The notes under the pieces: generated by a model
Seen by the model: only the letters and a program-made list of their open reading frames with translations
Database searches by the model: none
What the model was told of the DNA's origin: nothing
Made by a program: the position numbers and the translations under genes
Part shown: piece by piece, positions 16,604 to 48,505 of the stretch
Layout: each line of letters opens with the position of its first letter
How positions within the stretch are numbered: the first letter of the stretch is position 1
NCBI GenBank assembly: GCA_949293555.1
Contig: CASFDV010000003.1
Coordinates: forward strand, 7,614-71,613
Source: an uncultured Bacillota bacterium
GTDB taxonomy: Bacteria > Bacillota_I > Bacilli_A > RFN20 > CAG-826
Length of the DNA stretch: 64,000 nt
Direction of reading: 5' to 3'

Positions 16604-16605
16604 GC

Positions 16606-27181: not shown

Positions 27182-28663
27182 ATGGAAAGAGTCACGGGAA
27201 TCCTGTCTCCCGTCGCCAGCCTCCCTTCGCGGCACGGCATCGGCGACTTCGGGAAGGAGAGCTATCGTTTCGCGGAACTTTCCGCCAAGGCCGGGTTCCG
27301 GCTCTGGCAGGTTCTGCCCCTCAACCCCCTCGGGTACGGGCATTCTCCCTACCAGCCCTTCTCAAGCTACGCGATCGACGAGCTCTACTGCGACCTCGAT
27401 GCGCTCAAGGAAGAAGGCCTCATCAAGGGGGACATCCCGGACTTCGCGAAGGATAGCGCCAAGATTCTCTACGAGGAGATCCGCGACTTCAAGCTTCCCT
27501 ACCTCCACGAGGCCTTCGCCTCCTTCATGAAGAAGAGGGGCGCGGCGAAGAAGCTCGAGGACTTCCGGAAGGAAGAGGAATGGGCGACCGCCTGGGGCCT
27601 CTTCATGATGAACAAGAGGAAGGAGTTCCTCCGGAGCTGGACCACCTGGGAGAAGCGCCGCCAGAGGATGAACGAGGGGAAAGTCGTCCTCACCCCTGAG
27701 GAGAAGGACGACTTCGACTTCGAGATCTGGCTCCAGATGACCCTCTACTCCCAGTGGAGGAAGCTCCTCGAGCACTGCCACGCCCTCGGGCTCAGGATCG
27801 TCGGGGACGTTCCTTTCTACGTCGGCCATGACTCGAGCGACGTCTGGGCGAACCTCGAGTACTTCCTGATCGACCCCAAGACCAAGGAGCCGACCTTCAT
27901 CGCCGGCGTCCCCCCCGACTACTTCTCCGCGACAGGCCAGCGCTGGGGGAACCCGATGTACAACTGGGACTACCTCGAGATGAAGGACTTCAGCTTCCTC
28001 ACGAAGCGCCTCATCGGGAACGCGAAGCTATACGACATCGTCCGCCTCGACCACTTCCGCGCCTTCGACACCTACTGGAAGATCCCCGCGAGCTGCCCGA
28101 CCGCCATCGAAGGCGTCTGGAACGAGGCCCCGGGCTACAAGTTCTTCGACACGCTCCTCAAGGAAGCCCCCGGCATCGAGATCATCGCCGAGGACCTCGG
28201 GGACCTCAGGAAGGAGGTCCTCGTCCTTCGCGACCATTACGATTTCCCCGGCATGAACGTCGTGCAGTTCACCTTCCATGACGCCGAGATCGCCAAGACC
28301 GACGATCGCGACCGCGAGAACATGGTCGCCTACCTCGGCACCCACGACAACCAGACCATCCGCGCCTATTACGAGGAGCTTCCCGAAGGGGAGAGGAAGG
28401 CCTGGGACGAGGCGCTTTCCTCGCTTGGCATCCCGGAAGGGGACATCACCGAGAGGGCAATCCGTTACGAGCTCTCGCTCAAGGCGAAGTACGCGATCTT
28501 CGCCGTCCAGGACCTCCTCGGGCTCGGGGACGAGGCCAGGCTCAACAAGCCCGGCATCGTCGACGACGTGAACTGGACCTGGAGGATGAAGGACTACGAG
28601 GAGCTTGAGGAAAGGCTTCCCCATCTCACCGACCTCATGAAAGAGTACGGGAGGCTCCAATGA
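27182..28663 (+). CDS. malQ: 4-alpha-glucanotransferase (amylomaltase, GH77)
   Basis: N-terminal GIGDFG pattern and length typical of the family. Confidence 0.85.
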   Translation: MERVTGILSPVASLPSRHGIGDFGKESYRFAELSAKAGFRLWQVLPLNPLGYGHSPYQPFSSYAIDELYCDLDALKEEGLIKGDIPDFAKDSAKILYEEIRDFKLPYLHEAFASFMKKRGAAKKLEDFRKEEEWATAWGLFMMNKRKEFLRSWTTWEKRRQRMNEGKVVLTPEEKDDFDFEIWLQMTLYSQWRKLLEHCHALGLRIVGDVPFYVGHDSSDVWANLEYFLIDPKTKEPTFIAGVPPDYFSATGQRWGNPMYNWDYLEMKDFSFLTKRLIGNAKLYDIVRLDHFRAFDTYWKIPASCPTAIEGVWNEAPGYKFFDTLLKEAPGIEIIAEDLGDLRKEVLVLRDHYDFPGMNVVQFTFHDAEIAKTDDRDRENMVAYLGTHDNQTIRAYYEELPEGERKAWDEALSSLGIPEGDITERAIRYELSLKAKYAIFAVQDLLGLGDEARLNKPGIVDDVNWTWRMKDYEELEERLPHLTDLMKEYGRLQ

Positions 28664-29958
28664 AGGCCGCCCTCGTCTCGCTTGGCTGCGCGAAGAACCT
28701 CGTCGACAGCGAGATCGTCCTGTCCGTCCTGGAAAGGGGCGGGATTTCGCTGACCTCCGACCTCAAGGAGGCCGACCTCGTCATCCTCAACACCTGCGCC
28801 TTCATCAAGCCGGCTAGGGAAGAGGCCGCCCGCGAGATCAAGGGCATCCGCAAGAAGACGAAGGCGAGGATCGCCGTCATGGGCTGCTTCCCCGAGAAGG
28901 ACCTCGAGGAATGCAGGTCCATGCTCCCGGAGGCCGACCTCCTCATCCCGATCCACGACTACCCCCGCTTCGGGAAAATCCTCGGGGACTTCCTCGGGAT
29001 TTCCGAGCTCCCTGCGATGGAGCCGACCAAGCGCGTCCTCTCCACTCCTCCCTGGAGCGCATGGCTCCGGATCAGCGAGGGGTGCGACAACCACTGCGCC
29101 TTCTGCGCGATCCCGAAGATCCGCGGGCCGTTCCGCTCGCGCCCCTACGAAGAAATCCTCGCGGAAGCGCGCTCCCTTAAGGAGCAAGGCGTCCTTGAGC
29201 TTTCCGTCGTAAGCCAGGACACTTGCCGCTACGGAAAGGACCTTGGAGAGGGGGCGAAGACCCTCGTCGACCTCCTCAGGGAACTGGACGGGATGGGTTT
29301 CTACTCCATCCGCCTCTTTTACCTTTACCCCGCGGAGGTCACCGACGAGCTCCTTGACCTCATCGCCGGGAGCAAGAGCATCGCCCACTACCTCGACCTC
29401 CCCATCCAGTGCGCCTCCGACCCCCTTCTCAGGAGGATGAACCGGAGGGACACCGTCGAAGGCATGAGGGATCTCTTCCGCCGCATCCAGGAGAAGATCC
29501 CGGACGCGGTCTACCGCACGACCCTCATCACCGGCTTCCCCGGGGAGACGGAGGAGGACCACCGGAGCACCCTCGAGTTCATGAAGGAGATCCGCTTCCA
29601 CCACCTCGGCTGCTTCCGCTTCAGCCCCGAGGAGGGGACTCCCGCCTACAAGATGGATGGGGAAGTGCCCGAGGACGTCGTCCGCGCCAGGGAACGGGAC
29701 ATCATGGGGCTCCAGCTCCAGATCGCCGCCGAGAGGTGCCGCGAGATGGTGGACAAGGACCTCGAAGGCATCGTCACCGGCTACGACGCCCACCGCCACC
29801 AGTACACGTTCCGCTCCTACTGGAACGCCCCCGACGAGATCGACGCGAACATCTACTTCTCCTCGCCCATCACCGTCCCCTCCGGCTCCATCCGGAAGCT
29901 CAAGGTGACGAACGGCTTCGTCCGCGACCTCGCCGGGCAGCTCCTGCCCGAGGAGTAG
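28660..29958 (+). CDS. rimO: Ribosomal protein S12 methylthiotransferase (radical SAM, MTTase + TRAM domains)
   Basis: N-terminus SLGCAKNLVDSE, radical-SAM motif CDNHCAFCAIP, C-terminal TRAM region. ATGA overlap with malQ. Confidence 0.8.
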   Translation: MKAALVSLGCAKNLVDSEIVLSVLERGGISLTSDLKEADLVILNTCAFIKPAREEAAREIKGIRKKTKARIAVMGCFPEKDLEECRSMLPEADLLIPIHDYPRFGKILGDFLGISELPAMEPTKRVLSTPPWSAWLRISEGCDNHCAFCAIPKIRGPFRSRPYEEILAEARSLKEQGVLELSVVSQDTCRYGKDLGEGAKTLVDLLRELDGMGFYSIRLFYLYPAEVTDELLDLIAGSKSIAHYLDLPIQCASDPLLRRMNRRDTVEGMRDLFRRIQEKIPDAVYRTTLITGFPGETEEDHRSTLEFMKEIRFHHLGCFRFSPEEGTPAYKMDGEVPEDVVRARERDIMGLQLQIAAERCREMVDKDLEGIVTGYDAHRHQYTFRSYWNAPDEIDANIYFSSPITVPSGSIRKLKVTNGFVRDLAGQLLPEE

Positions 29959-30100: not shown

Positions 30101-31375
30101 TCATCCTTTCGATCGTGCATAGCGAGGTCCCGGCGGCGTCCGCCATCTCCTGCCTGGACATCCTTGGGTTCTCCTCGATGAGGCGGAGGAGGGCCTCCTC
30201 GAGGATGTCGCTCCTGATGGCGGGGGAGGAAGCGCAGCGGCAGGGCCTTCCTCCAGGATCGGGTTTTTAGTGGCATCGCCTTCGACAGCCTCTTCGTAGT
30301 TAAGGTTGGGGAGCGTGACGAAGAAGTAGCGGTCGATCACCTGAAACTCTGGCTTCCTCGGATCGTTCTCGTATGCCTCCCTTATGCGGAGCAGCCCGGT
30401 CCCGTAGTTCTCGATCAGGCCAAGCTTGTCGAATATCCTGACGAGCCCGGGGTTCCGGAATGTCTGGAGGCCGTTCAGCGCGGCCTCCAAGGTCGAGTGG
30501 AAGACGTTCCCGGGATTGATGATTCGGGCATAGCCGGGGTGGAGCTCGATCTTTATGCTCGAGGGGAGGGAGTAGTCCGCGTGGCAGATGGCGTTCAGGA
30601 CGGCCTCCCTCATGCTTGCGCCCGGGAAGGACTTCGTCTCGACCCTTTCGGCCTGTCCTTGAAGGATCCTCGCGGAGGTGTCGTTGAACATCTCGACGTA
30701 TTCGAGAAGGCTTCTCGCGATGTGGACGAGGGAGCCCCTGAACTCCTTCTTCACCTTGAAGTCCATCCCCTCGGTATAGACGGCGAACTTGACGACGACA
30801 GGGCTTTCCTCGCTGAGGAGGAGTCCGAGATTCGTGAACTTTCCGTGCGCGTCCTGGATACCGAGCGCCATGAACTTGTCGGGTCCGAAGGGCAGGCCTT
30901 GCTCCTCCGCGTTCTCATGCATATGGCGGAAGGTGAGGTCCTGCCTTTCGGAGACGCCCTTCTCGAAGCTATAGTCTCTCGAATCCATCGCCGGATGGAG
31001 GATTTCCTCCTGGTCAACCTGGCGGACGCTCCTTCCGAGGCGAACGAAGGTCCCGCCCGGCCTTGGGCCCTTGGAGGCGAGGTAGTAGGGCTTCTGATCC
31101 CCCTCCTCGATCCGAATCTCAAGGACGCCGTCCTCGTTATAGGCAAGTTGCACCTTGCTCCGGCAGCTTGGGGCAATAGCGTCTCCGATCAAATTCCCAA
31201 CCAGCCCGTCGTAACGATCCCTTAGTTCGGGAGGGACGCTCACTGGCCTTCCCTGGTCGTCGACCCCGATATAGATCACTCCGCCCCGGGCGTTCAGGAA
31301 AGCGACGATCTCCTTGTCGAGATGGTCCACCATCTCGCGCTTCAGCTTTACCTTGTCGCTTTCCTCGTATCTCAT
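30101..31375 (-). CDS. AlbA_2 / HATPase_c_4 (Schlafen-like, 'RecG-related') putative transcriptional regulator, frameshifted at the C-terminus
   Basis: N-terminal VAFLNARGGVIYIGVDDQG (AlbA_2) and a central ATPase-like region. The C-terminal HTH (ILEEALLRLIEENPRMSRQEMADAAGTSLCTIERMI...RWEILD) is in another frame running to 30033. The frame switch is at a 5-C run on the coding strand (G5 on + at 30222-30226). Confidence 0.65.
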   Translation of the reverse strand: MRYEESDKVKLKREMVDHLDKEIVAFLNARGGVIYIGVDDQGRPVSVPPELRDRYDGLVGNLIGDAIAPSCRSKVQLAYNEDGVLEIRIEEGDQKPYYLASKGPRPGGTFVRLGRSVRQVDQEEILHPAMDSRDYSFEKGVSERQDLTFRHMHENAEEQGLPFGPDKFMALGIQDAHGKFTNLGLLLSEESPVVVKFAVYTEGMDFKVKKEFRGSLVHIARSLLEYVEMFNDTSARILQGQAERVETKSFPGASMREAVLNAICHADYSLPSSIKIELHPGYARIINPGNVFHSTLEAALNGLQTFRNPGLVRIFDKLGLIENYGTGLLRIREAYENDPRKPEFQVIDRYFFVTLPNLNYEEAVEGDATKNPILEEGPAAALPPPPSGATSSRRPSSASSRRTQGCPGRRWRTPPGPRYARSKG

Positions 31376-31681
31376 AGCCGTGGTCCCCTTGCGACTTTCT
31401 TGTTAACAGCACTGAATAAGGCTGAGAGGGAGAGTGTCCAAAGGGATTTAGGTCAAAGCCTCCTTTCTCGATCCTGTCGGTTTGCGGCAAAAAGACAGGA
31501 ATCACATGGGTTGCCATGATCGCTTCTCGTCCATGGACCTTCAGCACTTGCCCAGGCAGGAACAACCGGCTTTAAGTCTGTTTGAAAGAGGGATTCCGAA
31601 TTTACGACCTGCTTCTGTATGGTTTTCTGCTATTGCTTAAGGAAAAGGCGGCCCGAAGGCCGCCTGGGGAATCGCCAGGGA

Positions 31682-34354
31682 CTAGAGGTATTCCGTATAC
31701 GTCTCGTCCTGGACGAAGGGGATGTAGACGGTAGGCGTCCCGTCCTCCGCATCGACCGTCCCGATCACCGCGCCGAACACCATCCCGTAGCTCGCCTCGT
31801 CCGCGATCCCGTAGGAGAGGCAGACTCCGATCTCCCCGTCCGCGGGGTCGTACTCGAAGGCGAGGCGGTACTCTTCCGCGGCGATCCCCGTGTCCGTGAC
31901 GTTCGTCTCGTACACCATCGCGCGGATCCCGCCGTCCACGTATTCGTAATAGAACCAGTAGACGTCCTCATGGGTCTCCTCCGGGTTTTCCTCGTCCGCG
32001 GATTCGATGTAAGTGTCGACGATATAGCCCTTGAGGGGGCTCTCGTAGCTATCCTCGCCTCCCTCGTAGGGCTCGTCTGTGAAGACGATGTGGGTATCGG
32101 GGTAGCCCACCGGGTCCATCGTGACCGTCCATGAGGTGCCGACGGGGGTCATGTCCTGGGGGAGTATCGTGAAGGTGAAGACCACCGCGTTCCCCTCGCC
32201 CGCGGGGGGATCGTACCAGTCGCTCGTGCAGGCGACCCGGACCTCGGTGGGCTCATCGACGGAACCGGCCCTGAGGGTCAGCCTACCGCCTTCGGTGGAG
32301 ACGACCTCGAGGAGGGAGGGGTTCTCGCTTTCGGCCTCGAAAACGCAGGGCGCGTTGTCCGGGACCTGGTTCACCACGTAGCTTTCCGTGGTGTTCTCAT
32401 AGATTCTCGCCCTGTCGATGTCCTCGACCATGTCGCTCAAGGTCCAGTCGAGGGCGAGGGCGTGGAACTTTGTCGTCGCCCAGACGCGGATCGGCAGGGC
32501 GTAGGTCGCCCCGGGATCCTTCGTCGCGCGCCCGATGGTGACCTCGACGCCCGTCTCGTCGGTGAGGCCGAGGGCGGTCATCTCGGTGTAGTCGTCGGTG
32601 TCGCTCTTGCCGATCTTGCTTTCGTCCTCCGAGGCGATGGGGCCGTACTGCCAGAGGTCGAGCGCGGTCCTCGGGAGGTAGCTTGCCTCGACGTTCTCGA
32701 TCTCCTCTTCCTCGAAGTAGGAGGCGAGGCGGATCTTGTCGCCGTAGTGGACGGCGGAAGTCTCCCCGTCGTCCGCGACGCCGGAGTCAGGGTTATAGAA
32801 GCGGATCTCCTCGAACTCCTCGATGAAATAGGGGGAGAGGTCGAAGGGGGCTTCCCCTTCGAGGGGGTCGCCGTACCGCCATTCGCCTTCCATCCTCTTC
32901 CCGACTTTCCCGGACTGGCCCGCGAGAGGAGCGTGGCCCACGAAGTCCCACTCCGTCTCGGAGTAGACGGTCTCGAGATAGTCGAGGCTCTTGACCGCGC
33001 CTCCCTCGGTGAAGCCGATCTCCATGTGGAAGACATGGCCCTCGTGCATCTCCTGGGTGTAGGTACCGCCCTCGGAGCTATATTCGACGTAGGTGTCGAC
33101 TGTGGTGAGGAAGCCCTCTTCCTGGGGCTCGCTTTCGATCCGGACGCTGTAGGAGCTCGTCTCCTCCATCTGGAAGCCGCTCCGGTAGGCGTCCATGATC
33201 TCGCCCTCCAGGAGCTTCATCGCGTAGGGGAAGGTCTCGAGGGACTTCCTCGCGAGGCGATGCGAGATCTCGAAGGTCCCGAGGTCCTCCGACTCCTCAA
33301 GGGAATCCTCGACGACGTCATAGGTCGCCGAGTAGGCGTTCTCCCTCTCCCTCGTGAGGTCGTTGTTCCCGAGGGCGTGCGTGTACTCGTCGACCACCGT
33401 GAGGGTCCCCGCCTCCTCGTCGAGGCGCTTGTAGACATGGTAGTCCCGCCCCTGGAGGAGGTCCTCCGCGACGAAGAGGAAGGAGCCGTCCTCGTAGCGG
33501 TTCATCTCGAGTTCCTGGGCGAGACCTTCCCCAGGGATCGTCAGGGAGAGGGCCATGCCCTGGACGTCCGCCGGATGGATCGCCGTCTCCGAGCGGATCG
33601 AGAGGCCTGTGTTGAAGAGGGAGCTGAGGGAAGCCTCGCTATTGGGGAGCTGGTCCACCTTCACCCTTTGCACGTAGCAGGGGAACAAGGGTGAGCTCGG
33701 GTCGTAGAAGAAGTCGTAGGTCGACCCGGAGGCGATGTTCAGGTTCTCCTCCGCCCCGAAGTTGAAGGAGATGTCGGCGAAGCTCCTGCTCTCGTCCAGC
33801 GAATAGGCGGAAAGCTTGGAAAGCGCGCCCCCTTCCCCTTCGACGTTATAGGAAAAGTTCGCCCGCGCCTGGGGGACGTCGACCTTGACGTTCCTCGCCG
33901 CGTAGACGCCGTTCTCCTCGAGGGCGAGGACGGCGGCGATGTCGCCGGAGAGGGTGACCCTCCCCTCGACCTCGACCTGGACGGTCACCCTGACGGACCG
34001 TCCGGGCATCCGGAAGGAGAAGGTCTTGTTCCCGTCCGTCGAGACGAGATCCTCGTCGTTCGCCTTTGCCCCGGTCACCTTGAAGCCAGGGTCCGTGGAA
34101 AGGATCGTGAGGGTGATGGTTTCCCCTTCCTCGGCCTCCTCCTTGTCTAGCTCCGCCTCGACGCCCGCGGGGAGGGTTAGGGTGATGATGTACGTCTTCT
34201 CCTCCTGGCGGGAAGAAGAGGAGCCCGACTCCACGGGAAGGGACTGGCTCTCGCCCGCGCTTTCGGAGAGGGAGGAGGAAGGGAGGACGTCGTCCCCGCC
34301 GCAGGCGGCGAGGGCAAGGGCGAGGGCAGGGAGGATGAGGAGGCTCTTCTTCAT
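31682..34354 (-). CDS. Large acidic surface lipoprotein (~890 aa)
   Basis: True start MKKSLLILPALALALAACGG (lipobox) with RBS AAAGGAAAG. The listed ORF has about 190 aa of spurious N-terminal extension. Confidence 0.7.
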   Translation of the reverse strand: MKKSLLILPALALALAACGGDDVLPSSSLSESAGESQSLPVESGSSSSRQEEKTYIITLTLPAGVEAELDKEEAEEGETITLTILSTDPGFKVTGAKANDEDLVSTDGNKTFSFRMPGRSVRVTVQVEVEGRVTLSGDIAAVLALEENGVYAARNVKVDVPQARANFSYNVEGEGGALSKLSAYSLDESRSFADISFNFGAEENLNIASGSTYDFFYDPSSPLFPCYVQRVKVDQLPNSEASLSSLFNTGLSIRSETAIHPADVQGMALSLTIPGEGLAQELEMNRYEDGSFLFVAEDLLQGRDYHVYKRLDEEAGTLTVVDEYTHALGNNDLTRERENAYSATYDVVEDSLEESEDLGTFEISHRLARKSLETFPYAMKLLEGEIMDAYRSGFQMEETSSYSVRIESEPQEEGFLTTVDTYVEYSSEGGTYTQEMHEGHVFHMEIGFTEGGAVKSLDYLETVYSETEWDFVGHAPLAGQSGKVGKRMEGEWRYGDPLEGEAPFDLSPYFIEEFEEIRFYNPDSGVADDGETSAVHYGDKIRLASYFEEEEIENVEASYLPRTALDLWQYGPIASEDESKIGKSDTDDYTEMTALGLTDETGVEVTIGRATKDPGATYALPIRVWATTKFHALALDWTLSDMVEDIDRARIYENTTESYVVNQVPDNAPCVFEAESENPSLLEVVSTEGGRLTLRAGSVDEPTEVRVACTSDWYDPPAGEGNAVVFTFTILPQDMTPVGTSWTVTMDPVGYPDTHIVFTDEPYEGGEDSYESPLKGYIVDTYIESADEENPEETHEDVYWFYYEYVDGGIRAMVYETNVTDTGIAAEEYRLAFEYDPADGEIGVCLSYGIADEASYGMVFGAVIGTVDAEDGTPTVYIPFVQDETYTEYL

Positions 34355-34368
34355 ATCGCTTTCCTTTC

Positions 34369-35169
34369 TTAGTCCATGCTCGGCAGGAGGAAGCAGAGGA
34401 TCGTCTCCTCGCCCCCCGCCACGTACCAGAGGTTGATGAAGTCGCCGGTCCTCGAGATCGAGAAGGAACTGAGGGTCGTCCTCGCGGTCTCGGAAGGCTC
34501 GTAGGAGATGGAGTAGAAGTGCGTCTTCGTCGCGCTTTCGTAGTAGGAATATTCGTAGGTGAAGTCGTAGCGCTGCCCCGCCCCCATCTCGTCGGACATG
34601 AGGAGGAGGCCCCGCTTCTCCTCCGGGTCGACGAAGGTCATCTCGTAGGTCCCGTAGGGGTAGCCGGGGGGCTCGTTCCACGAGGTCACGGAGAAGAGGT
34701 AGTCGTCCATCTCCTCGAGGGGGATCTCCTTCCTGATCTTCACGACCTTCTGGCAGTAGGAGAACCCGTCGTCCCCGTAGATGGTGAGGAGGACGTTCCC
34801 CGCGCCTTTCGCGCGGAGGAGGAAGGTGAAGTCTCCCGCAGGGTCGACGATGGCCTCCAGGAGCGAGGGGTCGCTCGTCTCCACGACGAGGGAGGACACC
34901 CTCTTGTCGTCCGGGGCGAAGGAGCACTCGTACTCGTCCCCGACCGTCATCGCGTAGCCCATCTCGAGCTGGAGGAGGTAGCCGCCATAGGCGCCTTCGC
35001 AGTATTCCTCCGCCTCGATCGGGGGATAGCTCTCCTCCCAGACGGGGAGCTTCGTCTCCGAAGAGGAGGAACTATCCTCGACGGAGGGGGAGGAGCTCCC
35101 TTCGGGAGGGGTCCCCGAGCAGGAGGGCAGCAGGAGGAGAAGCGGCAGGGCGAAGGCGGTCTTTCGCAT
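34369..35169 (-). CDS. Surface lipoprotein, hypothetical
   Basis: Lipobox in MRKTAFALPLLLLLPSCSG. Confidence 0.65.
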   Translation of the reverse strand: MRKTAFALPLLLLLPSCSGTPPEGSSSPSVEDSSSSSETKLPVWEESYPPIEAEEYCEGAYGGYLLQLEMGYAMTVGDEYECSFAPDDKRVSSLVVETSDPSLLEAIVDPAGDFTFLLRAKGAGNVLLTIYGDDGFSYCQKVVKIRKEIPLEEMDDYLFSVTSWNEPPGYPYGTYEMTFVDPEEKRGLLLMSDEMGAGQRYDFTYEYSYYESATKTHFYSISYEPSETARTTLSSFSISRTGDFINLWYVAGGEETILCFLLPSMD

Positions 35170-35345
35170 GGGGCACGTCCTTTCCTATTGAGGCGTCACC
35201 ACGCTTTTATATGCATCCGCGCGATTTTCTCAAGGAAAAACTTGAGCCAGAAAACTTTCCCTTGCTGCGTTCGATTTCCTGTTGAAAGTTATCGCGAAGC
35301 GGTTACATTCGATGCGACGAAAAGGAGAAGGAGAAAGGAGTTCCA

Positions 35346-37739
35346 ATGAAGAAGAGACTGCTGCTTCCCTTGCTCGCGGCGGGCGCCCTGGTCGGGATCG
35401 CCGCCGCGGGGAACGTTCCTGGCCGCACGCTGGCTGGGCCGGGGACAACCCACCACGCCTTGGAGGAGGGAGAGGAGGCGATCGTCCTCTCGCTCCCGCC
35501 CGAGGTCACCGCCGAGGCGCCGGAGGGCGCTGCTCCCGGCGAGATCGTCCACGTGGACATCTCCTATGAGGAGGGGGACATCCTCGTCCACGCCCTCCTC
35601 GTGAACGGGAACCCCGCCGCCGAGGACCCGGACGGGGGCTACTACTTCCCGATGCCGGGGGAGGGGGCGACCATCACCCTCGCCTACGACTACGTCGGGA
35701 AATACGAGGTGAACGACATCTCCGCCGAGGGGATCGCCCTGACCGGTCTTCCCGAGGGGCTCGTCCGCGAAGGAGATGCGATCACCTTCAGCGTCCACAC
35801 CCTCCCGGGCACGCCCGTCTCCTTCACGGGGGTCGTGACCATCGAGGATGCGGAAGGGAACGAGGTCCCCTACACGAAGAACGGGAACGAGTACTCCTTC
35901 GAGATGCCCGATTCCGACGTCACCATCCTCTGCGGGACCGAGACGCGCCTCTTCCGCGTGAACGAGGAGAAGTACGCGGCCGACGACACTTCCTACGACC
36001 TCATCCTCAACTACGGCGTCCTCGGCGAGGAAGGCTCGGTCGAGGATATCACCTACAAGGGGGCCGCCCTCGCCGGATCGACGATCCGCGTGACGATGAA
36101 GGAGGCGACGCGCTACCGGCCCACGGGCGTCGAGATCAAGGAGTCCGGGGCGACCTACATGCTCGAGGAAGGCTCCCTTGTCCTCGACATCCCGCTTCCG
36201 AACCACGACATGACCCTCGTCCCGCTGGCTGAGCTGAAGTACCTTCCCTTCGCGTTCGAATGCCCCGAGGGCGTGACCGCGACGGCCTACACGAAGGACG
36301 AGACGGGCGCCTATCAGGTGATGGAGACGCTCGAGGCCGTCCCTGAGGACATCGTCTACCTCAAGGCCGAGACCACGAGCCCCGACGTGAAGGTCACCGG
36401 CTGGGGCGGAACCTACCTTGCCTCGTGGGGCTCGGGCACGATCCCGAGCGCCCGCTTCGAGGAGGTGGGGGACGGCTACTGGTCCTATGAGATGGACGAC
36501 GAGGAAGAGATCGTCCTCGTCCCGGCCACCATCGAGAGGATGGAGGTGACGCTCCCCGCCTCGGAGGACGTCGAGATCGCCCTCTACGCGAAGGACGCGG
36601 AAGGGGAATACGTCTCCCAGACGGGCTTCTTCCCGGGCGACACCGTCTACGCGAAGGCGACGCTCCTCAACGAGGAGGCCCGCGTCGAGTCCCTCACCCT
36701 CCTCTGGGAGGAAGGCTGGAGCGACGGAGAGGTCCTGATGACCCTCAACGAGGAGGGCTACTACGAAGGGACGATCGACAAAGCCGCGACGGGCGGCTAT
36801 GCGATCGAGGCGGAGATTATCGCCCCGATCGACGTCGCCCTCACCAACAGCCAGAGCCTGACGGGCACCCTCTACGGCAAGGACGAGGGAGGCGCATACG
36901 TGGAGAAGAGCTCCTTCCTCCCGGGCCAGACGGTCTACGTCCGGGTCGCCGGGGAGAGTGAGGACATCAAGGTCCGCGACGTCCTCCTGGGCTGGTACGA
37001 GGAAGGGTACTACTCCTCCGAGGCGGCGAGCGAGTCCATGACCCTGAACGCCGAGGGCTACTACGAGGGGACGATCCCCGCGGACGCTCTCGCCCCCTTC
37101 AGCGTCACCATCCTCGAGGAGAACCCGACCGCCTATGCGGACTACCCCTTCGTCGGGAGCTACCTTGTTGCGGAAGGGTACGCCACCTACAACGACCTTT
37201 ACGACGAGCCGCCCAGCGGGACCTCGGCAGAGCTTCCCGCCTCGGGGATCGCCTCCCTCGGTGGGACGGAGTCCGTCATCTCCTCGATCGAGGGGAATCC
37301 CGAGGACAAGGAGGGGATCATCCACTTCACGAACGGGAAGATCCTCGCCTACGGGCCGAACCTGGTCCTCTCCTCCTGGAGAAACTTCGATACCCTCGCC
37401 AAGAACGACGTCTGGTGGGGGCTCAAGACCGCGGAGGACGGGGCCACCTACAGCGCCTCGCTCCTCAACGTCTCCGGCTACACCGGCCTCTTCCAAGGCT
37501 ACCGGACGGATAGCGACGGGACTAGGACGGTCATCGCGACAGGCTTCTACCGCTACGAGTCCTCCATCTCCTATGAGCTTCACCTTTCCGGGGTCGAGTG
37601 CAAGGACGGGGAGGGGAACCCCGTCGAGCTCCCCAAGTCTTCGGACGAGGAGGCGGAGATCCACGTCTACGTGGACGGGATCAAGATCGGCGTCATGACC
37701 CATGGGGCCTCTGAGAACGTCTGGACTCCCGCGGAGTAA
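35346..37739 (+). CDS. Large secreted repeat protein (797 aa) with repeated EGYYEGTI modules
   Basis: Signal peptide MKKRLLLPLLAAGALVGIAAAG (no cysteine). Internal paralogous repeats. Shares the FVGSY/FLGSY module with the next gene. Confidence 0.7.
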   Translation: MKKRLLLPLLAAGALVGIAAAGNVPGRTLAGPGTTHHALEEGEEAIVLSLPPEVTAEAPEGAAPGEIVHVDISYEEGDILVHALLVNGNPAAEDPDGGYYFPMPGEGATITLAYDYVGKYEVNDISAEGIALTGLPEGLVREGDAITFSVHTLPGTPVSFTGVVTIEDAEGNEVPYTKNGNEYSFEMPDSDVTILCGTETRLFRVNEEKYAADDTSYDLILNYGVLGEEGSVEDITYKGAALAGSTIRVTMKEATRYRPTGVEIKESGATYMLEEGSLVLDIPLPNHDMTLVPLAELKYLPFAFECPEGVTATAYTKDETGAYQVMETLEAVPEDIVYLKAETTSPDVKVTGWGGTYLASWGSGTIPSARFEEVGDGYWSYEMDDEEEIVLVPATIERMEVTLPASEDVEIALYAKDAEGEYVSQTGFFPGDTVYAKATLLNEEARVESLTLLWEEGWSDGEVLMTLNEEGYYEGTIDKAATGGYAIEAEIIAPIDVALTNSQSLTGTLYGKDEGGAYVEKSSFLPGQTVYVRVAGESEDIKVRDVLLGWYEEGYYSSEAASESMTLNAEGYYEGTIPADALAPFSVTILEENPTAYADYPFVGSYLVAEGYATYNDLYDEPPSGTSAELPASGIASLGGTESVISSIEGNPEDKEGIIHFTNGKILAYGPNLVLSSWRNFDTLAKNDVWWGLKTAEDGATYSASLLNVSGYTGLFQGYRTDSDGTRTVIATGFYRYESSISYELHLSGVECKDGEGNPVELPKSSDEEAEIHVYVDGIKIGVMTHGASENVWTPAE

Positions 37740-37757
37740 AGAAAGGAAACCCTAACG

Positions 37758-40214
37758 ATGAAACTCAAGAATGCATATGCCCTCATCCTCGCCGCCGGGG
37801 CGCTCGTCCTTTCTGGCTGCGGGAATGGGGAGACATCCTCCTCCTCTTCCTCGGAGGAGGGATCCTCATCTCTCACGGGAGGCTCCTCAAGCGGCAGCTC
37901 CTCCTCATCCCATGAGGGAGGCACTTCGAGCGGGAGTTCCTCCAGCTCGTCGTCCAGCTCCTCCAGCTCCTCCAGCTCCTCCAGTTCCTCTTCTAGCTCC
38001 TCGAGCTCCTCTTCCAGTTCCTCTTCCAGCTCCTCCAGCTCTTCCTCTAGTTCCTCCTCCAGCGAGCCCGTGGTGACCTACCCGATCAGCGTGGAGGCGC
38101 CCGATGGCGTGACCGTTACGGTGGACGAGAGGGCCGAGGAAGGCGCGCTCGTCAAGGTCGTCGTGGACGCCGGGGAGCTCATCGTCGACTCCGTGACCGC
38201 CAACGGCTATGCGTGCGGCCTCCTCGAGGCAGGGACCTACTACTTCGAGATGCCCGCGGAGGCCGTCACGATCGTCGTGACCGCCCATGAGGCGGACGTC
38301 CCCGGGACCCTCTACACCCTCGAGGCCGCGGGTGCGATCACCCTCCAGGGGGCCAAGTCCTCCTACGAGGAAGGGGAGGAAGTCTCCTTCACCGTCCTCG
38401 TCGATCCGGGGATGGTGTTCAACGGGCTGACGATCGCAAGCGACTCCTTCTTCAACCCGACCGTGGTCGAATACGAGACCGAGGCGGGCGCGGACGGGAC
38501 CACCGTCTACACCTTCGAGATGCCCGCCTTCGACGTCGTCGTCACGGGCGATACCTCCTACGGGCTCTACGAGCTCATATGGGACGACCCCAACATCTCC
38601 GGCGTCTACGCGAAGGCCCCGGGCGAGGAGTACGCCTCCTCGGTGAACTACGATGTCGTAGCCTATAAGTCCGAGGTCGAGGTCCGCCTCAAGGACACCG
38701 ACACCCACCTCGCGAAGGGGATCCGCATCGTTGAGACCGGGGAGGAGATCCTCGCCGCCGAGGGCGAGATGAGCGTCACCTTCTCGATGCCCCACAGGAA
38801 CATCACCATCGAGTCCGTCGTCGATCCCTACTACCGCACGATCGTCGGGGAAGCCTCCGCGCACCTGACCCCGGACATCTACCGTCTCCTTGAGGACGGG
38901 ACCTACGTCCTCGACGACGAGTTCCTCGCCGGGGAGACCGCCTACGTCAAAATCAGCGGCGTGAGCGAGGACTACCAGGTTCTCTCGCTCGTGGCCGGAT
39001 ACGAGGGCGCTTCCGGGGAAGAGACCGAGGACCTCCTCGCCGCCGGGGCGAACGAGGACGGCTACTACGCCTACGAGATCACCAACGAGAGCGACTCCTT
39101 CTTCGTCCGCGTCGCGGAGAAGGACATGACCGCCTTCGTGGACGCCCCCTTCCTCGGTAGCTACCAGGGCGTCAACGTCTATAACAACACCTATGCGAAC
39201 AACACCGCGTGGTACGGCGAGGCGCTCGCGCCCACCATCGACGCCTCCGGCTACTTCTCCTACCGGGGCGGGGAGGCCAGGATCCTCGGTTACGAGGAGG
39301 AGACCGGCACCCTGACCGTCGAGTACGAAGGGAACGAGGGAATCGCCCTCTACGGCGACAACATCATCTTCTCCAGCTGGGGCCTCAGCTCCCTGACCGG
39401 GAACGACAACGTCTACATGGTGAGGATGGAGGAAGGGGACGACCCTTCGCTCTACACCGTCGAATACAAGCACTTCGGCACGAACCAGGTCGTCCAGGCC
39501 AAGCGGGACGGCGAGGTGTACGCGACCGCCTGGAACGACATGGCGAGCGGCGTGGTCCACTTCGGGGTCGACTTCGTCCTCAACGAGGGCGCGGCCTCGA
39601 TCCTCGACACGAGCGAGACGGGCGGCTACCTCATCCAGAAGGATGGGGAGACCCTCCTCGAGATCGGCATCAAGGACGGCGCCTTCGTGACGCTGGACGG
39701 CTACCAGGGCACCTACACCCTTGTAGGAGGAACGGACACCCTCGTCCTCGACGGGACCGGGGCGGCCACCTACCTCGGCGAGGAAGGGCTGACCTACCAG
39801 ATCGTCGACGAGACCCACGTCACCCTGAAGAAGGGCGGCGAGACCTGGGACATCGAGCTCGGCGAGGGAACCTACACGGTGCTGGCGCACCATGAGCCCG
39901 CCAACGAGTTCATCGGCTGGACCTACGTCGGCGAGTGCGACTACAACGACATCACCCTTGAGTTCGTGGACGAGACGAAGTGCTACTTCACCCTTGGGAG
40001 CTGGAACGACTACATCGGGGGCGACGCCGCCCAGGATAACGTCGAGAACCAGACCTACGTGATCGACAGGGATGCCAACACCATCACCGTCACTACTTGG
40101 GGTTATGGGACTCAGTACGAAATCGTCCTCACCATCGGGGATGGCACCCTGACCTTCGTGGAGGACCTGAGCTGGACCTACCCGACGGAGGGCACCGTCC
40201 TGACCCGCCAGTAG
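37758..40214 (+). CDS. Large surface lipoprotein (818 aa) with a ~50-residue poly-Ser linker
   Basis: Lipobox in ALVLSGCGNG. The poly-Ser tract is encoded by an (AGC/TCC)n array at about 37915-38065. Confidence 0.75.
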   Translation: MKLKNAYALILAAGALVLSGCGNGETSSSSSSEEGSSSLTGGSSSGSSSSSHEGGTSSGSSSSSSSSSSSSSSSSSSSSSSSSSSSSSSSSSSSSSSSSSSSEPVVTYPISVEAPDGVTVTVDERAEEGALVKVVVDAGELIVDSVTANGYACGLLEAGTYYFEMPAEAVTIVVTAHEADVPGTLYTLEAAGAITLQGAKSSYEEGEEVSFTVLVDPGMVFNGLTIASDSFFNPTVVEYETEAGADGTTVYTFEMPAFDVVVTGDTSYGLYELIWDDPNISGVYAKAPGEEYASSVNYDVVAYKSEVEVRLKDTDTHLAKGIRIVETGEEILAAEGEMSVTFSMPHRNITIESVVDPYYRTIVGEASAHLTPDIYRLLEDGTYVLDDEFLAGETAYVKISGVSEDYQVLSLVAGYEGASGEETEDLLAAGANEDGYYAYEITNESDSFFVRVAEKDMTAFVDAPFLGSYQGVNVYNNTYANNTAWYGEALAPTIDASGYFSYRGGEARILGYEEETGTLTVEYEGNEGIALYGDNIIFSSWGLSSLTGNDNVYMVRMEEGDDPSLYTVEYKHFGTNQVVQAKRDGEVYATAWNDMASGVVHFGVDFVLNEGAASILDTSETGGYLIQKDGETLLEIGIKDGAFVTLDGYQGTYTLVGGTDTLVLDGTGAATYLGEEGLTYQIVDETHVTLKKGGETWDIELGEGTYTVLAHHEPANEFIGWTYVGECDYNDITLEFVDETKCYFTLGSWNDYIGGDAAQDNVENQTYVIDRDANTITVTTWGYGTQYEIVLTIGDGTLTFVEDLSWTYPTEGTVLTRQ
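37915..38065 (+). repeat. Low-complexity trinucleotide array (AGC TCC TCC variants) encoding poly-Ser
   Basis: Direct reading of the sequence. Confidence 0.8.
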
Positions 40215-40328
40215 GCCGGCCTCATCGACATCCCCAAGGCGCCCTTCCCTCCGGAGGGGCGCCTTTCTTCTTGGCGGTCGAATATCAAAAAACCAGCGGC
40301 GTTTCCGCGCTGGTCGAGCAGGTTTTGC

Positions 40329-41387: not shown

Positions 41388-42044
41388 GTGGCATATTGGG
41401 ATATAGAAAGAGGAGGGCGTCAGGTGAAATTCGCCTTGAGATTTGCCATTCCCTTGCTTTCGGTCATCGGGATTTGCGCCCCGCTTTCCTTGTCCTCCTG
41501 TTCTTCAGCCGACTCGGAACCGAGGCGCCTTTCCTATGGCGGGCATGAGGCGGGACTTGTGCAGGAGGAGGAAGGCGAGACGGTCGGGGAATGGGAAGGC
41601 ATCCTTGTCATCGAGCCTTTCGCGACTCCGCCTGAGGCCGGTGTCCTCGAATACTGGCAAGGCAAGGACGATCCGGAGCGAGTCCTCGCCCCTGTCTACG
41701 AGGATGCGATCCGGAACAGGGGGCCGGCGCTTCCATGCGACGGGGTTCCCGTGGCGACGGACTTCGGCAAGGCGACCCTCTTCCTCGTCGTGGAAGGGGC
41801 CTTGGAGCAGGTCCGTATCTATGCGAATCCCTGCGGGAACGATGCTTACGCCCTGTCCTGGGCGTTTGAAAGGAATAGCGAGGAAAACCCCGCTGAAGAC
41901 GATGTCTTCTGGTTCTCCTGCCACGGCCTCCTGAGTTTCCCTGGCCCTGGCTGGCGGGGATTCTACCGGCTTCTGTTCCGGCGCGATGATGGGACTTGGG
42001 CAAGGGCGATCCCTTATGAGTCCGCCTTCCTCTCGGAAGAGTGA
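41388..42044 (+). CDS. Hypothetical lipoprotein
   Basis: Lipobox in PLSLSSCSS. Confidence 0.55.
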   Translation: MAYWDIERGGRQVKFALRFAIPLLSVIGICAPLSLSSCSSADSEPRRLSYGGHEAGLVQEEEGETVGEWEGILVIEPFATPPEAGVLEYWQGKDDPERVLAPVYEDAIRNRGPALPCDGVPVATDFGKATLFLVVEGALEQVRIYANPCGNDAYALSWAFERNSEENPAEDDVFWFSCHGLLSFPGPGWRGFYRLLFRRDDGTWARAIPYESAFLSEE

Positions 42045-42626: not shown

Positions 42627-43940
42627 CTACCTTTCTCTCAGCCAGTCCTTGATGAAGAAGGCGCAGAAATGGGGGAGCGTCAGGACTTTGCCGCAGTAGG
42701 AGATGTTCTTCCTGGTGATCTTGATTCCTTCGGATATGTCCCCGTATTTCGGGTTGGCGATCGCTTCCCGGAGGCTATAGGCGTTGCCGTCCTTGCTCTT
42801 GACTTCCACCGGGACGATCCCGTCCTTGGTCCTGAGGACGAAATCCAGCTCCAAGGTGGAATCGGGCCTCTTGTAGTAGTAGAGGTCCAGCCCGCTTTTG
42901 CTCAGGCATTCCGCCACGGAATTCTCGAAGACGGCCCCTTTGTACACCCCGAAGTTCTTCCTGACCCGGAAGTCCTCCCCGCTTTCCGGGTCCAGGAGGG
43001 AGAGGAGGAGGCCTGTGTCGAAGAAATAGACCTTGAAGGCGTTTGGCACGGTGTTGCCTCGCAAGGGGATCTCGGGAAAGTTCAAGAGCCGGGAGGGGGT
43101 GACGAGCCCAGCGTCGCGAAGCCATTCGATGCATCCGAAGTAGTCGGCGAACCTTCCTCCCTTCCGGACGTGGGAGAAGACGAATTTCTTGTTCTCCTTG
43201 CCAAGCTCCGGGGCGATCGAGTCCATCACGCCGATGATTCGCTCTTGGTCCAGGCCGCCAGCGTATTTCCTGACGTCCGAGCGATAGCCGCCGATGAGTC
43301 CGTTTTGGAGTTCCGGGATGCCTTGGAAGTTTCTCCGAGCCAGATAGGACGATATGACGGCAGGCATTCCGCCAACGACCATGTAGTCGAAGAACAGGCT
43401 TTCGTATGCATCAAGCTCGTTCTCGGAGAAAGGGGACATCGCTTTCACGTGCTGGCGCATGTCCTCTGCCGTTTCCTCGCCATGGCCGCACGCCCAGAGA
43501 AACTCCTCGAAATCGAGGGAGGTCATCTTCCGGATCGTCTGGTAGCCGACGCTGATGCTTTCTATCCTGGAGAGCTGAACCCCGAGGAGAGAGCCGCTGC
43601 ATATGACGTCGTACCTTCCGTCCAGCTTGAAAAACTTGAGCGAGGATGTGATTTCGGGACAAGCTTGTATTTCATCGAAAAAGATGAGCGTCTTGCCCGG
43701 GACGAAGTTGAACGCGGGATTGACGAGGGACATGTTCCTGACGATTTTGTCCGGAGAATAGCCGTCGCCTACGATCCGGGAGAAAAGAGGATTCTCCGCG
43801 AAGTTGACGTAGGCGAGGCTTTCGTAGTTTTCCTTGGCGAACTTAAGGATGCTTTCCGTCTTTCCGACTTGCCTTGCCCCGGTGACGATCAAGGGCAGCT
43901 TGTCGGGGGCGGACTTCCATTCGAGGAGGTACATGTCCAC
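42627..43940 (-). CDS. AAA-family ATPase with DUF4143 domain (second copy in window)
   Basis: Walker A motif TGARQVGKTE and Walker B motif LIFFDEIQ. Lower GC than the core genes. Confidence 0.7.
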   Translation of the reverse strand: MDMYLLEWKSAPDKLPLIVTGARQVGKTESILKFAKENYESLAYVNFAENPLFSRIVGDGYSPDKIVRNMSLVNPAFNFVPGKTLIFFDEIQACPEITSSLKFFKLDGRYDVICSGSLLGVQLSRIESISVGYQTIRKMTSLDFEEFLWACGHGEETAEDMRQHVKAMSPFSENELDAYESLFFDYMVVGGMPAVISSYLARRNFQGIPELQNGLIGGYRSDVRKYAGGLDQERIIGVMDSIAPELGKENKKFVFSHVRKGGRFADYFGCIEWLRDAGLVTPSRLLNFPEIPLRGNTVPNAFKVYFFDTGLLLSLLDPESGEDFRVRKNFGVYKGAVFENSVAECLSKSGLDLYYYKRPDSTLELDFVLRTKDGIVPVEVKSKDGNAYSLREAIANPKYGDISEGIKITRKNISYCGKVLTLPHFCAFFIKDWLRER

Positions 43941-46629: not shown

Positions 46630-46776
46630 GGCAATAATCGCCGTTTCTTGGCGATAACTTCGCAGAACTGCCTTCAATCCCCGGATATCGTCGTTACAAG
46701 AGGAATCCCGCGGTTTTGCTAGGCAACCCTTCTTTTGGGGCATGCTTTATGCATCTTGTTGGATAGGGAGAATCCT

Positions 46777-47829
46777 ATGGAACGGGAGCGACCTTCTTTC
46801 TACAATTGCCCTATGGAAGAAAGGCTTCCCACCTACATCGCCCAGTGGACGATGGTCCTCCGGGGCATGCAGGTGGACAACACCTACAAGTGCGCTTGGG
46901 CCCGTGCAATCCTTTCCTGCCTCGGGAAGGGACGCTTCATGCAACTTCCCCCTGACGGGAAGGCGATGCTCCATTTCTCCGACATCGCCAAGGAGATGGT
47001 GAGGCTCTACTGGAACCAGACCTGCTTCTTCCACCTCCGTCAGGCGCCGGAGAAGAGAGGCCAGAGGGGTGCGCTGATCGTCTCCTACGTCGAGGACCTC
47101 ATCGAAAGCTACTATGCGCTCCTCGGGACCAGGAGGCCCTCCTGGTGGAGCGAGGCGGAGCCTCTCCTCAAGGAGGAGAAGGGGCTCCTCGAGAAGACGT
47201 TCCGCGAAGTCGGGAATGTCCTCCCCCAGAACGTCGCCCATCGCTTCCTGAACCTCAAGGGGAGGAGGGACCCCCTGCCCCTATACGAGTACCGGAGGCC
47301 CGAGAAGGCTATCTATTTCGCCTCCTGGCAGGTCGGGCTCCTCATCTCCTTCCGCGAGCTCCTCGAGGATGAGGTCGACCTCCGCTGGGCGGAGATCCTC
47401 GAGAGGTTCAACGGATCGCCGAGGATTGCGAGGAAGGTCGTCGCAGCCTCGAACGAGGAGCTGAGGAGAGGAAGCCTCAAGGAGTTCAAGGACGTCATCC
47501 AGGACGCCTACCGCCGGGTGAGGATCCCTGATTTCTACGAGGAAGGGTCCTATGTCCCTCTCGACGACTTCTCCCTCGACCACGTAATCCCGTGGAGCTA
47601 CCTTTACTCCGACGACATCTGGAACCTCGTCCCGACGAGGAAGGGGAATAACTCCGCGAAGGGGGACTCCCTCCCGGGAAAGGAGGACATCGTCCGCCTC
47701 AAGAGGAGGAACCAGGACCTCCTTCCCCGCCTCAGGGGGATGAAGGGGATGGAAAAGCACGTGGGCGCCCTCCTTTTCGCTGAGGAGAACCATCTCGTCG
47801 ACCTCTACTACGGGGGATGCCTCCTGTGA
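46777..47829 (+). CDS. HNH-endonuclease-domain protein (351 aa) with an uncharacterised N-terminal region
   Basis: C-terminal HNH motif DHVIPWSYLYSDDIWNLVPTRKGNNSAKGD. Start at MERERP, which has a GGGAG RBS. Confidence 0.55.
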   Translation: MERERPSFYNCPMEERLPTYIAQWTMVLRGMQVDNTYKCAWARAILSCLGKGRFMQLPPDGKAMLHFSDIAKEMVRLYWNQTCFFHLRQAPEKRGQRGALIVSYVEDLIESYYALLGTRRPSWWSEAEPLLKEEKGLLEKTFREVGNVLPQNVAHRFLNLKGRRDPLPLYEYRRPEKAIYFASWQVGLLISFRELLEDEVDLRWAEILERFNGSPRIARKVVAASNEELRRGSLKEFKDVIQDAYRRVRIPDFYEEGSYVPLDDFSLDHVIPWSYLYSDDIWNLVPTRKGNNSAKGDSLPGKEDIVRLKRRNQDLLPRLRGMKGMEKHVGALLFAEENHLVDLYYGGCLL

Positions 47830-48383: not shown

Positions 48384-48439
48384 ACATTCGTTATACATTA
48401 AAAAAATTCCGATGAAATCGTCGTTTTTTGCACGTCATC

Positions 48440-48465
48440 TTGAAAAATCAAGGGGGGGGTATTCT
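48440..48465 (+). promoter_or_regulatory. Candidate promoter with a G8 homopolymer in the spacer (TTGAAA-N14 including G8-TATTCT), upstream of the defence operon
   Basis: G8 lies at 48452-48459 between -35-like and -10-like hexamers. The spacer is currently 14 nt, which is sub-optimal. Confidence 0.3.
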
Positions 48466-48505
48466 TCCTTTGTTTTTTGGAGGTTTCGGGAGAGTGGGAG
48501 GCAAG

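Follow-up and report, generated by a model that had tools for sequence, protein, structure and literature searches.

The window analysed here is a 64,000-nucleotide (nt) stretch of an uncultured, high-GC bacterium of the Bacillota (Firmicutes) (assembly GCA_949293555.1, contig CASFDV010000003.1, positions 7,614 to 71,613 of the forward strand). It contains a block of four genes, termed A to D, that probably encode tethered envelope proteins built as exported chains of β-modules, among which C and D would be the diversifying ones, of adhesin-like or coat type. The block is uncharacterised but of a recognisable kind, namely the multi-domain surface lipoprotein with B-repeat- and Ig-like modules and a polyserine tether. 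This reading draws on the structure of the genes, their export signals and synteny, the homology and modelled folds of their products, the mosaicism of the alleles and the variation of the linker, all of which the analysis shows. The proteins may be exposed at the cell surface and may act in binding or adhesion, with host antibody or phage as the putative selective agent. A preliminary description of the window had suggested a family of variable surface antigens or adhesins; this is plausible for C and D and does not fit A and B.

Operon layout, export signals and the tether of D

Four consecutive open reading frames (ORFs) on two strands, as listed in the preliminary description, are present where it placed them. 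Sizes are in amino acids (aa) and positions are those of the window.

31682-34354 (-), gene A, 890 aa (ORF and start codon calls)
34369-35169 (-), gene B, 266 aa (ORF call)
35170-35345, B/C intergenic region, divergent, 176 nt
35346-37739 (+), gene C, 797 aa (ORF call)
37758-40214 (+), gene D, 818 aa (ORF call)
31646-31665 (-), intrinsic-terminator-like hairpin, 8 pairs, 7 of them G-C, 17 nt past the A stop
40236-40265 (+), intrinsic-terminator-like hairpin, 13 pairs, 9 of them G-C, 22 nt past the D stop

The block is organised as two divergent bicistronic operons, B-A and C-D, each with a hairpin terminator. Evidence for this is the short gap within each pair (14 nt between B, which is upstream, and A; 18 nt from the C stop to the D start), the divergent spacer and the terminators after A and D, both of which are strong hairpins accompanied by a T-run. 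B and A are probably co-transcribed because they are so closely spaced. A purine-rich ribosome-binding region precedes C within the B/C intergenic region. A sigma-70-like site at 35282-35309 (+) is only a candidate promoter, its match being no better than chance (one found, 1.1 expected). A homopolymer tract and flanking inverted repeats were looked for in this intergenic region and neither was seen, nor was a phase-variation device (invertible element, homopolymer tract or nearby recombinase) found at the block; there is no recombinase gene among the adjacent genes. Besides the poly-Ser tract of D, the only tandem DNA arrays listed by Tandem Repeats Finder (TRF) were matches of 19 to 25 nt with scores of 31 to 39.

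All four proteins carry a lipobox or a signal peptide, as had been proposed. By the criterion of a signal peptide ending in [LVI][ASTVI][GAS]C, the lipoboxes of A (LAAC) and D (LSGC) are canonical. That of B (LPSC, with Pro at -2) is near-canonical, and B orthologues have the canonical forms LSSC, LGGC or LASC. The signal peptide of C ends in AAA before G and has no Cys; in this species C is therefore no lipoprotein. Neither a Cys nor a Ser-rich linker is found in C (window 35346-35440) or in many C-type relatives; typically C-type relatives lack both lipobox and linker while D-type relatives have both. However, the C orthologues at two more distantly related loci, L005 and L006, carry the lipobox LSGC. 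From these sequences the anchoring mode appears to have switched within the C subfamily, with a lipobox in distant species and none here.

For A, B and D these signals predict export and lipid modification of the lipobox Cys, which would keep the protein on the outside of the membrane. In each, the Cys would be followed by a disordered Ser-rich tether. The 82 aa of the D tether would measure about 29 nm if fully extended and could carry the folded part through or beyond a Gram-positive wall. The signal peptide of C, of the ordinary cleavable type, would direct its export, after which C may be free or held non-covalently.

D begins with a signal peptide and lipobox, followed directly by the tether, which ends at the first β-module:

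37758-37820 (+), D signal peptide and lipobox, MKLKNAYALILAAGALVLSG followed by C (sequence)
37821-38066 (+), D Ser-rich tether, aa 22-103, 82 aa, 76% Ser (sequence)

The same N-terminus is found in the D orthologues P0008 and P0011 and at loci L001, L004, L007, L039 and L041. A perfect poly-Ser run of about 50 residues, encoded by an (AGC/TCC)n tract, had been described in this protein. A perfect run is present, but it comprises 43 Ser (aa 60-102, nt 37935-38063) and is encoded by five mixed codons (TCC 21, AGC 9, TCT 6, AGT 4, TCG 3). The longest perfect DNA tandem in the tract is 32 nt, and TRF gave only imperfect periods of 9, 12 and 21 nt (array at least 74 nt, score 71 to 109). The Ser tract is identical in L038 (run ERR10610683), an independent assembly of the same genome. 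The length variation predicted for it was observed when the repeat was compared between strains: across related strains the tether is 65 to 93 aa long, with a longest Ser run of 7, 21, 25, 43 or 44. The tether would change in length through gain and loss of Ser codons.

Polyserine linkers, including those in lipobox-plus-linker architectures, are established flexible spacers (PMC2386152), and D has what defines them, tens of near-uninterrupted Ser between an anchor and a domain. As in Saccharophagus degradans and Cellvibrio, the spacer past the lipobox is nearly pure Ser and uses mixed Ser codons (PMC2386152). Unlike in those gammaproteobacteria, the host here is a monoderm Firmicute, the passenger domains are non-enzymatic and a difference in Ser-run length from strain to strain has been shown. 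Ser-rich tethers past the lipobox are common in this lineage. They also occur in A (where the tether is short) and B of the window, the B-like protein of L006 contains a long, almost perfect stretch of Ser, and an extra lipoprotein of L005 and L006 (see below) has a Ser tether too. A lipobox-like motif was present in 75 of 144 representative relatives and was followed by a Ser/Thr-rich stretch in 32 of those 75.

Public gene calls for D start past the poly-Ser tract in four assemblies (P0006, 714 aa and from this genome, P0007, P0009 and P0010; loci L038, L039, L040 and L041), so that the signal peptide and lipobox are dropped, and the full 818-aa product is absent from the protein collection searched. 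The D ORF is uninterrupted and preceded by a ribosome-binding site in the window, L038, L039 and L041. In L040 the linker is collapsed and a frameshift leaves a 53-aa fragment and a 708-aa call. D of L040 may be a pseudogene, or its repeat may have been misassembled, as the disruption falls exactly in the repeat tract. Automated lipoprotein or secretome surveys that rely on such truncated calls would miss D.

The extreme acidity attributed to the four proteins is real, with a pI of 4.05 to 4.17 and a net charge of -27 to -118. An extreme Glu and Asp content had been noted, but the acidity comes mainly from depletion of Lys and Arg, which together make up 3.7 to 6.4% of A-D and 12 to 16% of most neighbouring gene products; Asp plus Glu is 16 to 19%, compared with 7.5 to 18% in the neighbours. 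Long antisense ORFs, previously put down to this biased composition, do exist but are not specific to the block. They arise because a genome-wide GC content at third codon positions of 0.90 leaves the codons TTA, CTA and TCA nearly absent, in the housekeeping genes RimO and GH77 as much as here. Antisense ORFs overlap most genes of the window, for example 28594-29799 (-) opposite RimO.

Domain architecture and relatives

The four genes had been taken as one family of giant paralogues. All-against-all BLASTP of A-D does not bear this out, and 'giant' is a generous label for proteins of 266 to 890 aa. C and D alone are paralogues (26 to 31% identity over about 600 aa, E 1e-15). A shares with D only one small N-terminal domain (80 to 124 aa, E 1.6e-5 and 0.002), and B has no similarity to A, C or D. 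The two modules said to be shared by the block are in C and D and in neither A nor B: EGYYEGTI occurs twice in C, with DGYYAYEI as its counterpart in D, and F(V/L)GSY is found in both. The internal repeats that had been reported are real. They consist of a tandem duplication in C and a periodic Y-x-F-x-M-P motif that recurs at intervals of 252 to 291 nt in C and D, dividing C into about six modules and D into four. The domains located in this way are:

33971-34201 (-), A N-terminal B-repeat-like domain, aa 52-128, ending in F-R-M-P (BLASTP against D; Flg_new_2 in relatives)
36549-37163 (+), tandem duplicated domain in C, aa 402-494 and 495-606 (40% identity, E 3e-18)
38067-39122 (+), four β-modules of D, 85-100 aa each, aa 104-455 (motif, AlphaFold2, sub-threshold Flg_new_2)
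39123-40211 (+), D C-terminal region, aa 456-818, beginning PFLGSY (AlphaFold2 β-meander or barrel-like, no family)

In A, the signal peptide with its LAAC lipobox is followed by a short Ser-rich linker, one B-repeat-like domain (aa 52-128, the only part that resembles C and D) and about 750 aa that are mostly β, including Ig-like domains. B (266 aa) consists of its lipobox, a Ser-rich linker and the remaining sequence. C has about six β-modules of 85 to 100 aa and a C-terminal domain of about 195 aa; each copy of its tandem domain ends in MTLN-EGYYEGTI, matching DNA repeat family D7, which is spaced 300 nt. In D the lipobox signal peptide and Ser tether lead to the four B-repeat-like β-modules, three of which end in Y-x-F-x-M-P-x-x-x-V and the fourth in a degenerate Y-A-Y-E-I, and then to about 360 aa of C-terminal β-domains.

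AlphaFold2 models were built from family alignments for D (aa 103-818) and A (aa 50-890). The model of D is entirely β (pLDDT 84.5) and divides into modules of 75 to 95 aa, with strands of the C-terminal region mostly at pLDDT 80 to 95; that of A is β save for two helices (pLDDT 81.7). A B-repeat fold would be compact, all-β and helix-less, with about 70 to 75 aa. The suggested check for Ig-like, β-sandwich or adhesin folds thus gave all-β multi-domain models, with A resembling Ig-like strings. Foldseek searches of BFVD with D retrieved 'Bacterial repeat domain-containing' proteins of gut phages (E 1e-12 to 1e-8, probability 1.0). The 'Bacterial repeat domain' fold of the C and D modules is therefore one that uncultured gut phages, crAss-like ones among them, encode as well, so that phage proteins and gut bacterial surface proteins have this domain in common. 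Whole-chain Foldseek matches of D to PDB entries (DDB1 and others) were spurious global matches (TM-score < 0.11, rmsd > 40 Å) and were not used. A matched the Ig-like strings of NUP210 (E 1e-9), complement MG domains and LigA Big_2 (probability 1.0), as well as the S-layer proteins SbsB (probability 0.97) and Sap (E 4e-6 to 7e-6, probability 0.75 to 0.97 for the two). The sole structural matches of A to enzyme or solute-binding types were weak ones to LprG/LolA-like proteins (E about 2e-3 to 4e-3).

At the sequence level, A-D gave nothing at threshold in Pfam or NCBIfam; most of A and the C-terminal regions of C (about 195 aa) and D (about 360 aa) belong to no family. The nearest Pfam family was Flg_new_2 (PF18998), which matched D aa 189-263 at 15.0 bits (E 0.026), below the gathering cutoff of 23.6 bits, and did not match A or C. 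In relatives the same family recurred: it matched four of nine A-family members (best E 9.2e-5), eight of 40 C/D relatives (best E 2.8e-10) and, weakly, P0005 and P0015, and the D-like protein of L016 exceeded the threshold at 45.3 bits. When the C/D family profile was searched against 1.84 billion representative proteins, 1296 relatives were found at E ≤ 0.001, of which 145 reach E ≤ 1e-30. Dozens of them are full-length, and the rest include giants of two to four thousand aa with up to 16 copies of the N-terminal module. The two giants that were scanned are true Flg_new_2 proteins, P0046 with 23 repeats (E 2e-233) and P0080 with 10 repeats and CWB2, and the profile matches both at E 1e-54 to 1e-81. 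The N-terminal modules of C, D and A are therefore taken to be divergent InlB B-repeat (Flg_new_2)-like domains, an assignment based on homology through intermediate sequences and profiles, the recurrent near-threshold matches and the Foldseek matches to phage repeat domains. For A, eight homologues were found. Big_2 (PF02368) has no Pfam match in A-D themselves and is present in A- and D-family relatives (P0023, P0027, P0029 and the A-like protein of L016). The folded parts of these proteins would thus be chains of small β-domains, B-repeat-like in C, D and the N-terminus of A and Ig-like in the rest of A, and the family-specific C-terminal β-domains are likely to be the parts that contact a ligand.

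Confident homology to enzymes or binding proteins, which would tell against a repetitive surface protein, was sought by profile searches and did not appear. No enzyme or solute-binding family was matched by A-D in Pfam, NCBIfam or PDB-profile searches, by about 50 relatives in Pfam scans or by 40 C/D-family relatives in an NCBIfam scan. Matches of these 40 relatives to other lipoprotein families of NCBIfam were read as reflecting a shared signal peptide and linker. Sequence-profile searches of PDB with the A-family and C/D-family alignments found no relative. Single relatives gave weak lipocalin-like matches (GH43_C, E 4.6e-4; DUF5640, E 0.0036). MIB-MIP-like and other Mollicutes systems were considered and dropped, because neither DUF31/peptidase nor any other family of such systems was matched in Pfam scans of A-D and their relatives. 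A search of the literature on RF39 and lipoproteins for this protein family found nothing.

The B repeat of Listeria InlB, the prototype of these domains, is a compact β-grasp-like domain with a proposed protein-binding groove and a poorly understood function (PMC8900821). C, D and the N-terminus of A resemble proteins with this repeat ('Bacterial repeat domain') in their tandem β-modules of about 75 to 100 aa with the Y-x-F-x-M-P motif, and would share the secreted, surface-associated context of internalins, where the exact role of the repeat is likewise poorly understood (PMC8900821). Unlike those proteins, A-D stay under the Pfam threshold (15 vs 23.6 bits), carry a lipobox (A, B and D) in place of GW, LPXTG or CWB2 modules, and have no LRR internalin domain; about half of each window protein is an unrelated C-terminal β-region that belongs to no family. 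Big_2 adhesins and S-layer proteins (LigA, SbsB, Sap) are, like A-D, acidic multi-domain surface proteins; the A model matches their Ig-like strings and relatives carry Big_2. However, A has no Big_2 at the sequence level, SLH and CWB2 modules are lacking, TM-scores are low and nothing indicates lattice formation.

In serine-rich repeat adhesins such as Fap1, GspB and SraP, Ser dipeptide repeats extend over hundreds to thousands of residues; these proteins are anchored through a C-terminal LPXTG and depend on an accessory Sec locus. The window proteins are similarly Ser-rich, secreted and adhesin-like in architecture, but the Ser region of D is only 82 aa and the predicted anchor is an N-terminal lipid rather than a C-terminal wall anchor. 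There is no LPXTG at the C-terminus of A-D, and the scanned ORFs of the window included none with a SecA2/SecY2 or glycosyltransferase family match. In Mollicutes, Vsa, Vlp, Vsp and related surface proteins are held by a lipid anchor, contain a low-complexity segment of variable length and differ greatly between strains. The block shares the segment of variable length, the strain diversity and, by prediction, the lipid anchor, and its family is also found in genomes labelled 'uncultured Mollicutes' or 'Bacilli'. In contrast to Vsa, Vlp and Vsp, to which A-D have no sequence homology, variation here consists of allelic recombination and linker length, with no high-frequency phase switching, tandem-repeat expansion of the protein body or site-specific inversion and no recombinase or invertible promoter nearby.

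Allelic variation and synteny

C and D are a within-species hot spot of allelic mosaicism. Amino-acid identities of the window products to those of the conspecific loci L001, L004 and L007 were:

GH77, 98.8-99.0%
RimO, 95-98%
AAA_14 ATPase, 96-97%
A, 92.6-92.9%
B, 92-98.5%
Nucleoside hydrolase (IUNH), 89-93%
C, 80.6-83%
D, 73.6-75.5%

Synonymous divergence (dS) and the ratio of non-synonymous to synonymous divergence (dN/dS), calculated by the method of Nei and Gojobori for the window against L001 and L004, were:

Flanks GH77, RimO and AAA_14, dS 0.06-0.13, dN/dS 0.05-0.22
A, B and IUNH, dS 0.10-0.23, dN/dS 0.13-0.27
C, dS 0.33-0.40, dN/dS 0.31-0.34
D, dS 0.44-0.49, dN/dS 0.40-0.43

For A and B the ratio was 0.13 to 0.18 (A, 0.16). 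The part of D that diverges most between strains is its C-terminal region, where sliding identity ranges from 48 to 100% and local dN/dS reaches 0.79. The description as a variable surface-antigen family is plausible for C and D, which are far more variable than their neighbours and have mosaic alleles, and does not suit A and B, which are conserved (92 to 98%).

The mosaic structure is clear from comparison with single alleles. D is 96 to 100% identical to allele P0009 over aa 101-350 and 64 to 82% identical beyond, and with P0007 it shows 74 to 82% identity over aa 101-300 and 100% over aa 701-818. C is 98 to 100% identical to P0002 and P0003 over aa 1-250 and 58 to 86% identical beyond. Of the informative sites in the first 600 nt past the D linker, 80 unite the window with L039 and 6 with L040; farther on the counts are 46 for L039 and 207 for L040. 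This is a signature of recombination between old allele lineages, with a breakpoint in D. C and D may thus be the exposed, diversifying components of the block, with old divergent alleles reshuffled by homologous recombination.

The gene set itself is stable. The conspecific loci L001, L002, L004, L007, L039 and L040 have the same four genes in the same order, with full-length sizes of 889-890 (A), 266 (B), 800-805 (C) and 812-842 aa (D). The arrangement of A and B on the minus strand divergent from C/D on the plus strand recurs in relatives at 25 to 39% identity with different flanks. In L005 and L006 (55 to 60% GC) the block is flanked by PolC and Hsp20 genes, and identities are 39-40% for A, 31% for B, 29-30% for C and 35-36% for D. 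L016 ('uncultured Bacilli', 29% GC) has A-like (1025 aa), B-like (328 aa) and D-like (1099 aa) genes that diverge in this way too, as part of a larger lipoprotein gene array. B orthologues adjoin A-like genes in L005, L006 and L016. L009 and L014 have a D-like gene with neither A nor B within 10 kb. An expanding and contracting antigen array was therefore not borne out, the block being a fixed syntenic gene set; its recurrence speaks for a functional link between the genes and against an unstable array. Because L005 and L006 do not conserve the GH77, epimerase, MFS and nucleoside-hydrolase genes as neighbours, a functional link of the block to these genes was rejected.

In the distant relatives a fifth conserved lipoprotein (451 to 461 aa, no Pfam family) is encoded next to the A-like gene:

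L005, 2718-4103 (-), fifth lipoprotein
L006, 3789-5150 (-), fifth lipoprotein
L016, 3976-5331 (+), fifth lipoprotein

No copy was found in the window by tblastn. In its place, an AlbA_2/SLFN-like ATPase gene (30101-31375) lies downstream of A.

Alternative explanations and wider context

Several points weigh against reading the block as tethered envelope proteins with diversifying C and D. The envelope of the host could be walled or wall-less, which makes the role of the tether a proposal. Whole-chain Foldseek TM-scores are very low, at most 0.25, no window protein exceeds the Pfam gathering threshold for any family and more than half of each has no family. The label 'variable antigen' misfits half of the block, as A and B are conserved. 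Positive selection is not demonstrated because dN/dS stays below 1 everywhere, with its maximum of 0.79 in one 100-codon window of D, and relaxed constraint together with recombination could give the same pattern in C and D.

This last point leads to the least likely of the alternatives, that C and D vary neutrally: both would be dispensable and under weak constraint, lie in a recombination hot spot, experience no diversifying selection and lack a specific surface function. The values of dN/dS, the raised dS in neighbouring IUNH and in A (about 0.2) and the disrupted D start of L040 would all agree with it. It is nevertheless highly improbable, as C and D are kept full-length in every strain and in distant species, have confident folds and belong to a family with 1296 representative relatives, and the L040 disruption, lying exactly in the repeat tract, may be an assembly error. 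It is also improbable, though somewhat less so, that these are nutrient-capture proteins, that is, surface lipoproteins binding glycans or other polymers in which the β-modules are spacers and the barrel-like C-terminal domains bind substrate. A lipobox with a polyserine linker is typical of Saccharophagus surface carbohydrases and CBM proteins (PMC2386152), weak lipocalin-like matches (GH43_C, DUF5640) occur in single relatives, and genes for GH77, an aldose epimerase and an MFS transporter lie upstream in the window. However, none of about 50 family members scanned has a CBM, GH or solute-binding domain, PolC and Hsp20 replace the carbohydrate-related neighbours in L005 and L006, and deep mosaic allelic diversity is not expected of nutrient-binding proteins.

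The strongest of the alternatives, yet still an unlikely one, is that A-D are subunits of one conserved lipid-anchored assembly, either an S-layer-like coat or a multi-subunit receptor complex, in which A and B form a conserved base, C and D are variable outer subunits and the anchorless C is held by D. Recurrence of the arrangement in L005 and L006 (30 to 39% identity) and in the 29%-GC L016 in spite of different flanks is consistent with such an assembly, as are the Foldseek matches of A to Sap and SbsB, the extreme acidic pI common to all four proteins and the typical division into C-type relatives without lipobox and Ser linker and D-type relatives with both. On the other hand, the TM-scores of A to S-layer proteins are very low, D-like genes occur in L009 and L014 with no A or B nearby, and the C orthologues of L005 and L006 are themselves lipoproteins. 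A bolder version is equally doubtful: A-B/C-D might be an undescribed heteromeric lipid-tethered surface machine or coat of gut-associated Bacilli and 'Mollicutes'-like Firmicutes, again with A and B as the conserved base, and with outward-facing C and D whose ancient, recombining allele lineages are under balancing selection by phage or host antibody. If this were true, the block would in effect be a serotype-determining locus.

Elsewhere in the window there are three more lipobox ORFs, two of them followed by short Ser/Gly-rich linkers and none with a Pfam family or similarity to A-D, which brings the total to six lipobox ORFs and the signal-peptide-only C. A region of reduced GC content resembles a defence or restriction-type island gained by horizontal transfer; the GC profile over 48001-54000 is 0.51 to 0.55, compared with about 0.60 to 0.64 elsewhere. 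The window also has several ATPase genes of types AAA_14/DUF4143 and ATPase_2/DUF234; in L001, L004 and L039 the region on the downstream side of the lipoprotein block holds AAA_14/DUF4143 genes, one or two per strain. Rfam matched nothing in the window apart from a pair of neighbouring tRNA genes.

3979-4959 (-), lipobox ORF
41388-42044 (+), lipobox ORF
58766-60793 (+), lipobox ORF
46735-52959, lower-GC stretch with HNH endonuclease, ResIII/SNF2-type helicase and AAA_23 ATPase genes
2561-3838 (+), 14913-16289 (-) and 42627-43940 (-), AAA_14/DUF4143-type and ATPase_2/DUF234-type ATPase genes
16529-16682 (-), tRNA gene pair

The protein family encoded by the block is rare among close relatives, yet a profile search finds about 1,300 representative relatives, and the recurrence of the arrangement at 25 to 39% identity, including in a 29%-GC genome, points tentatively to a function in common. 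Should C and D be surface-exposed, they may serve as strain-typing markers and would be likely targets of recognition by phage or host antibody.

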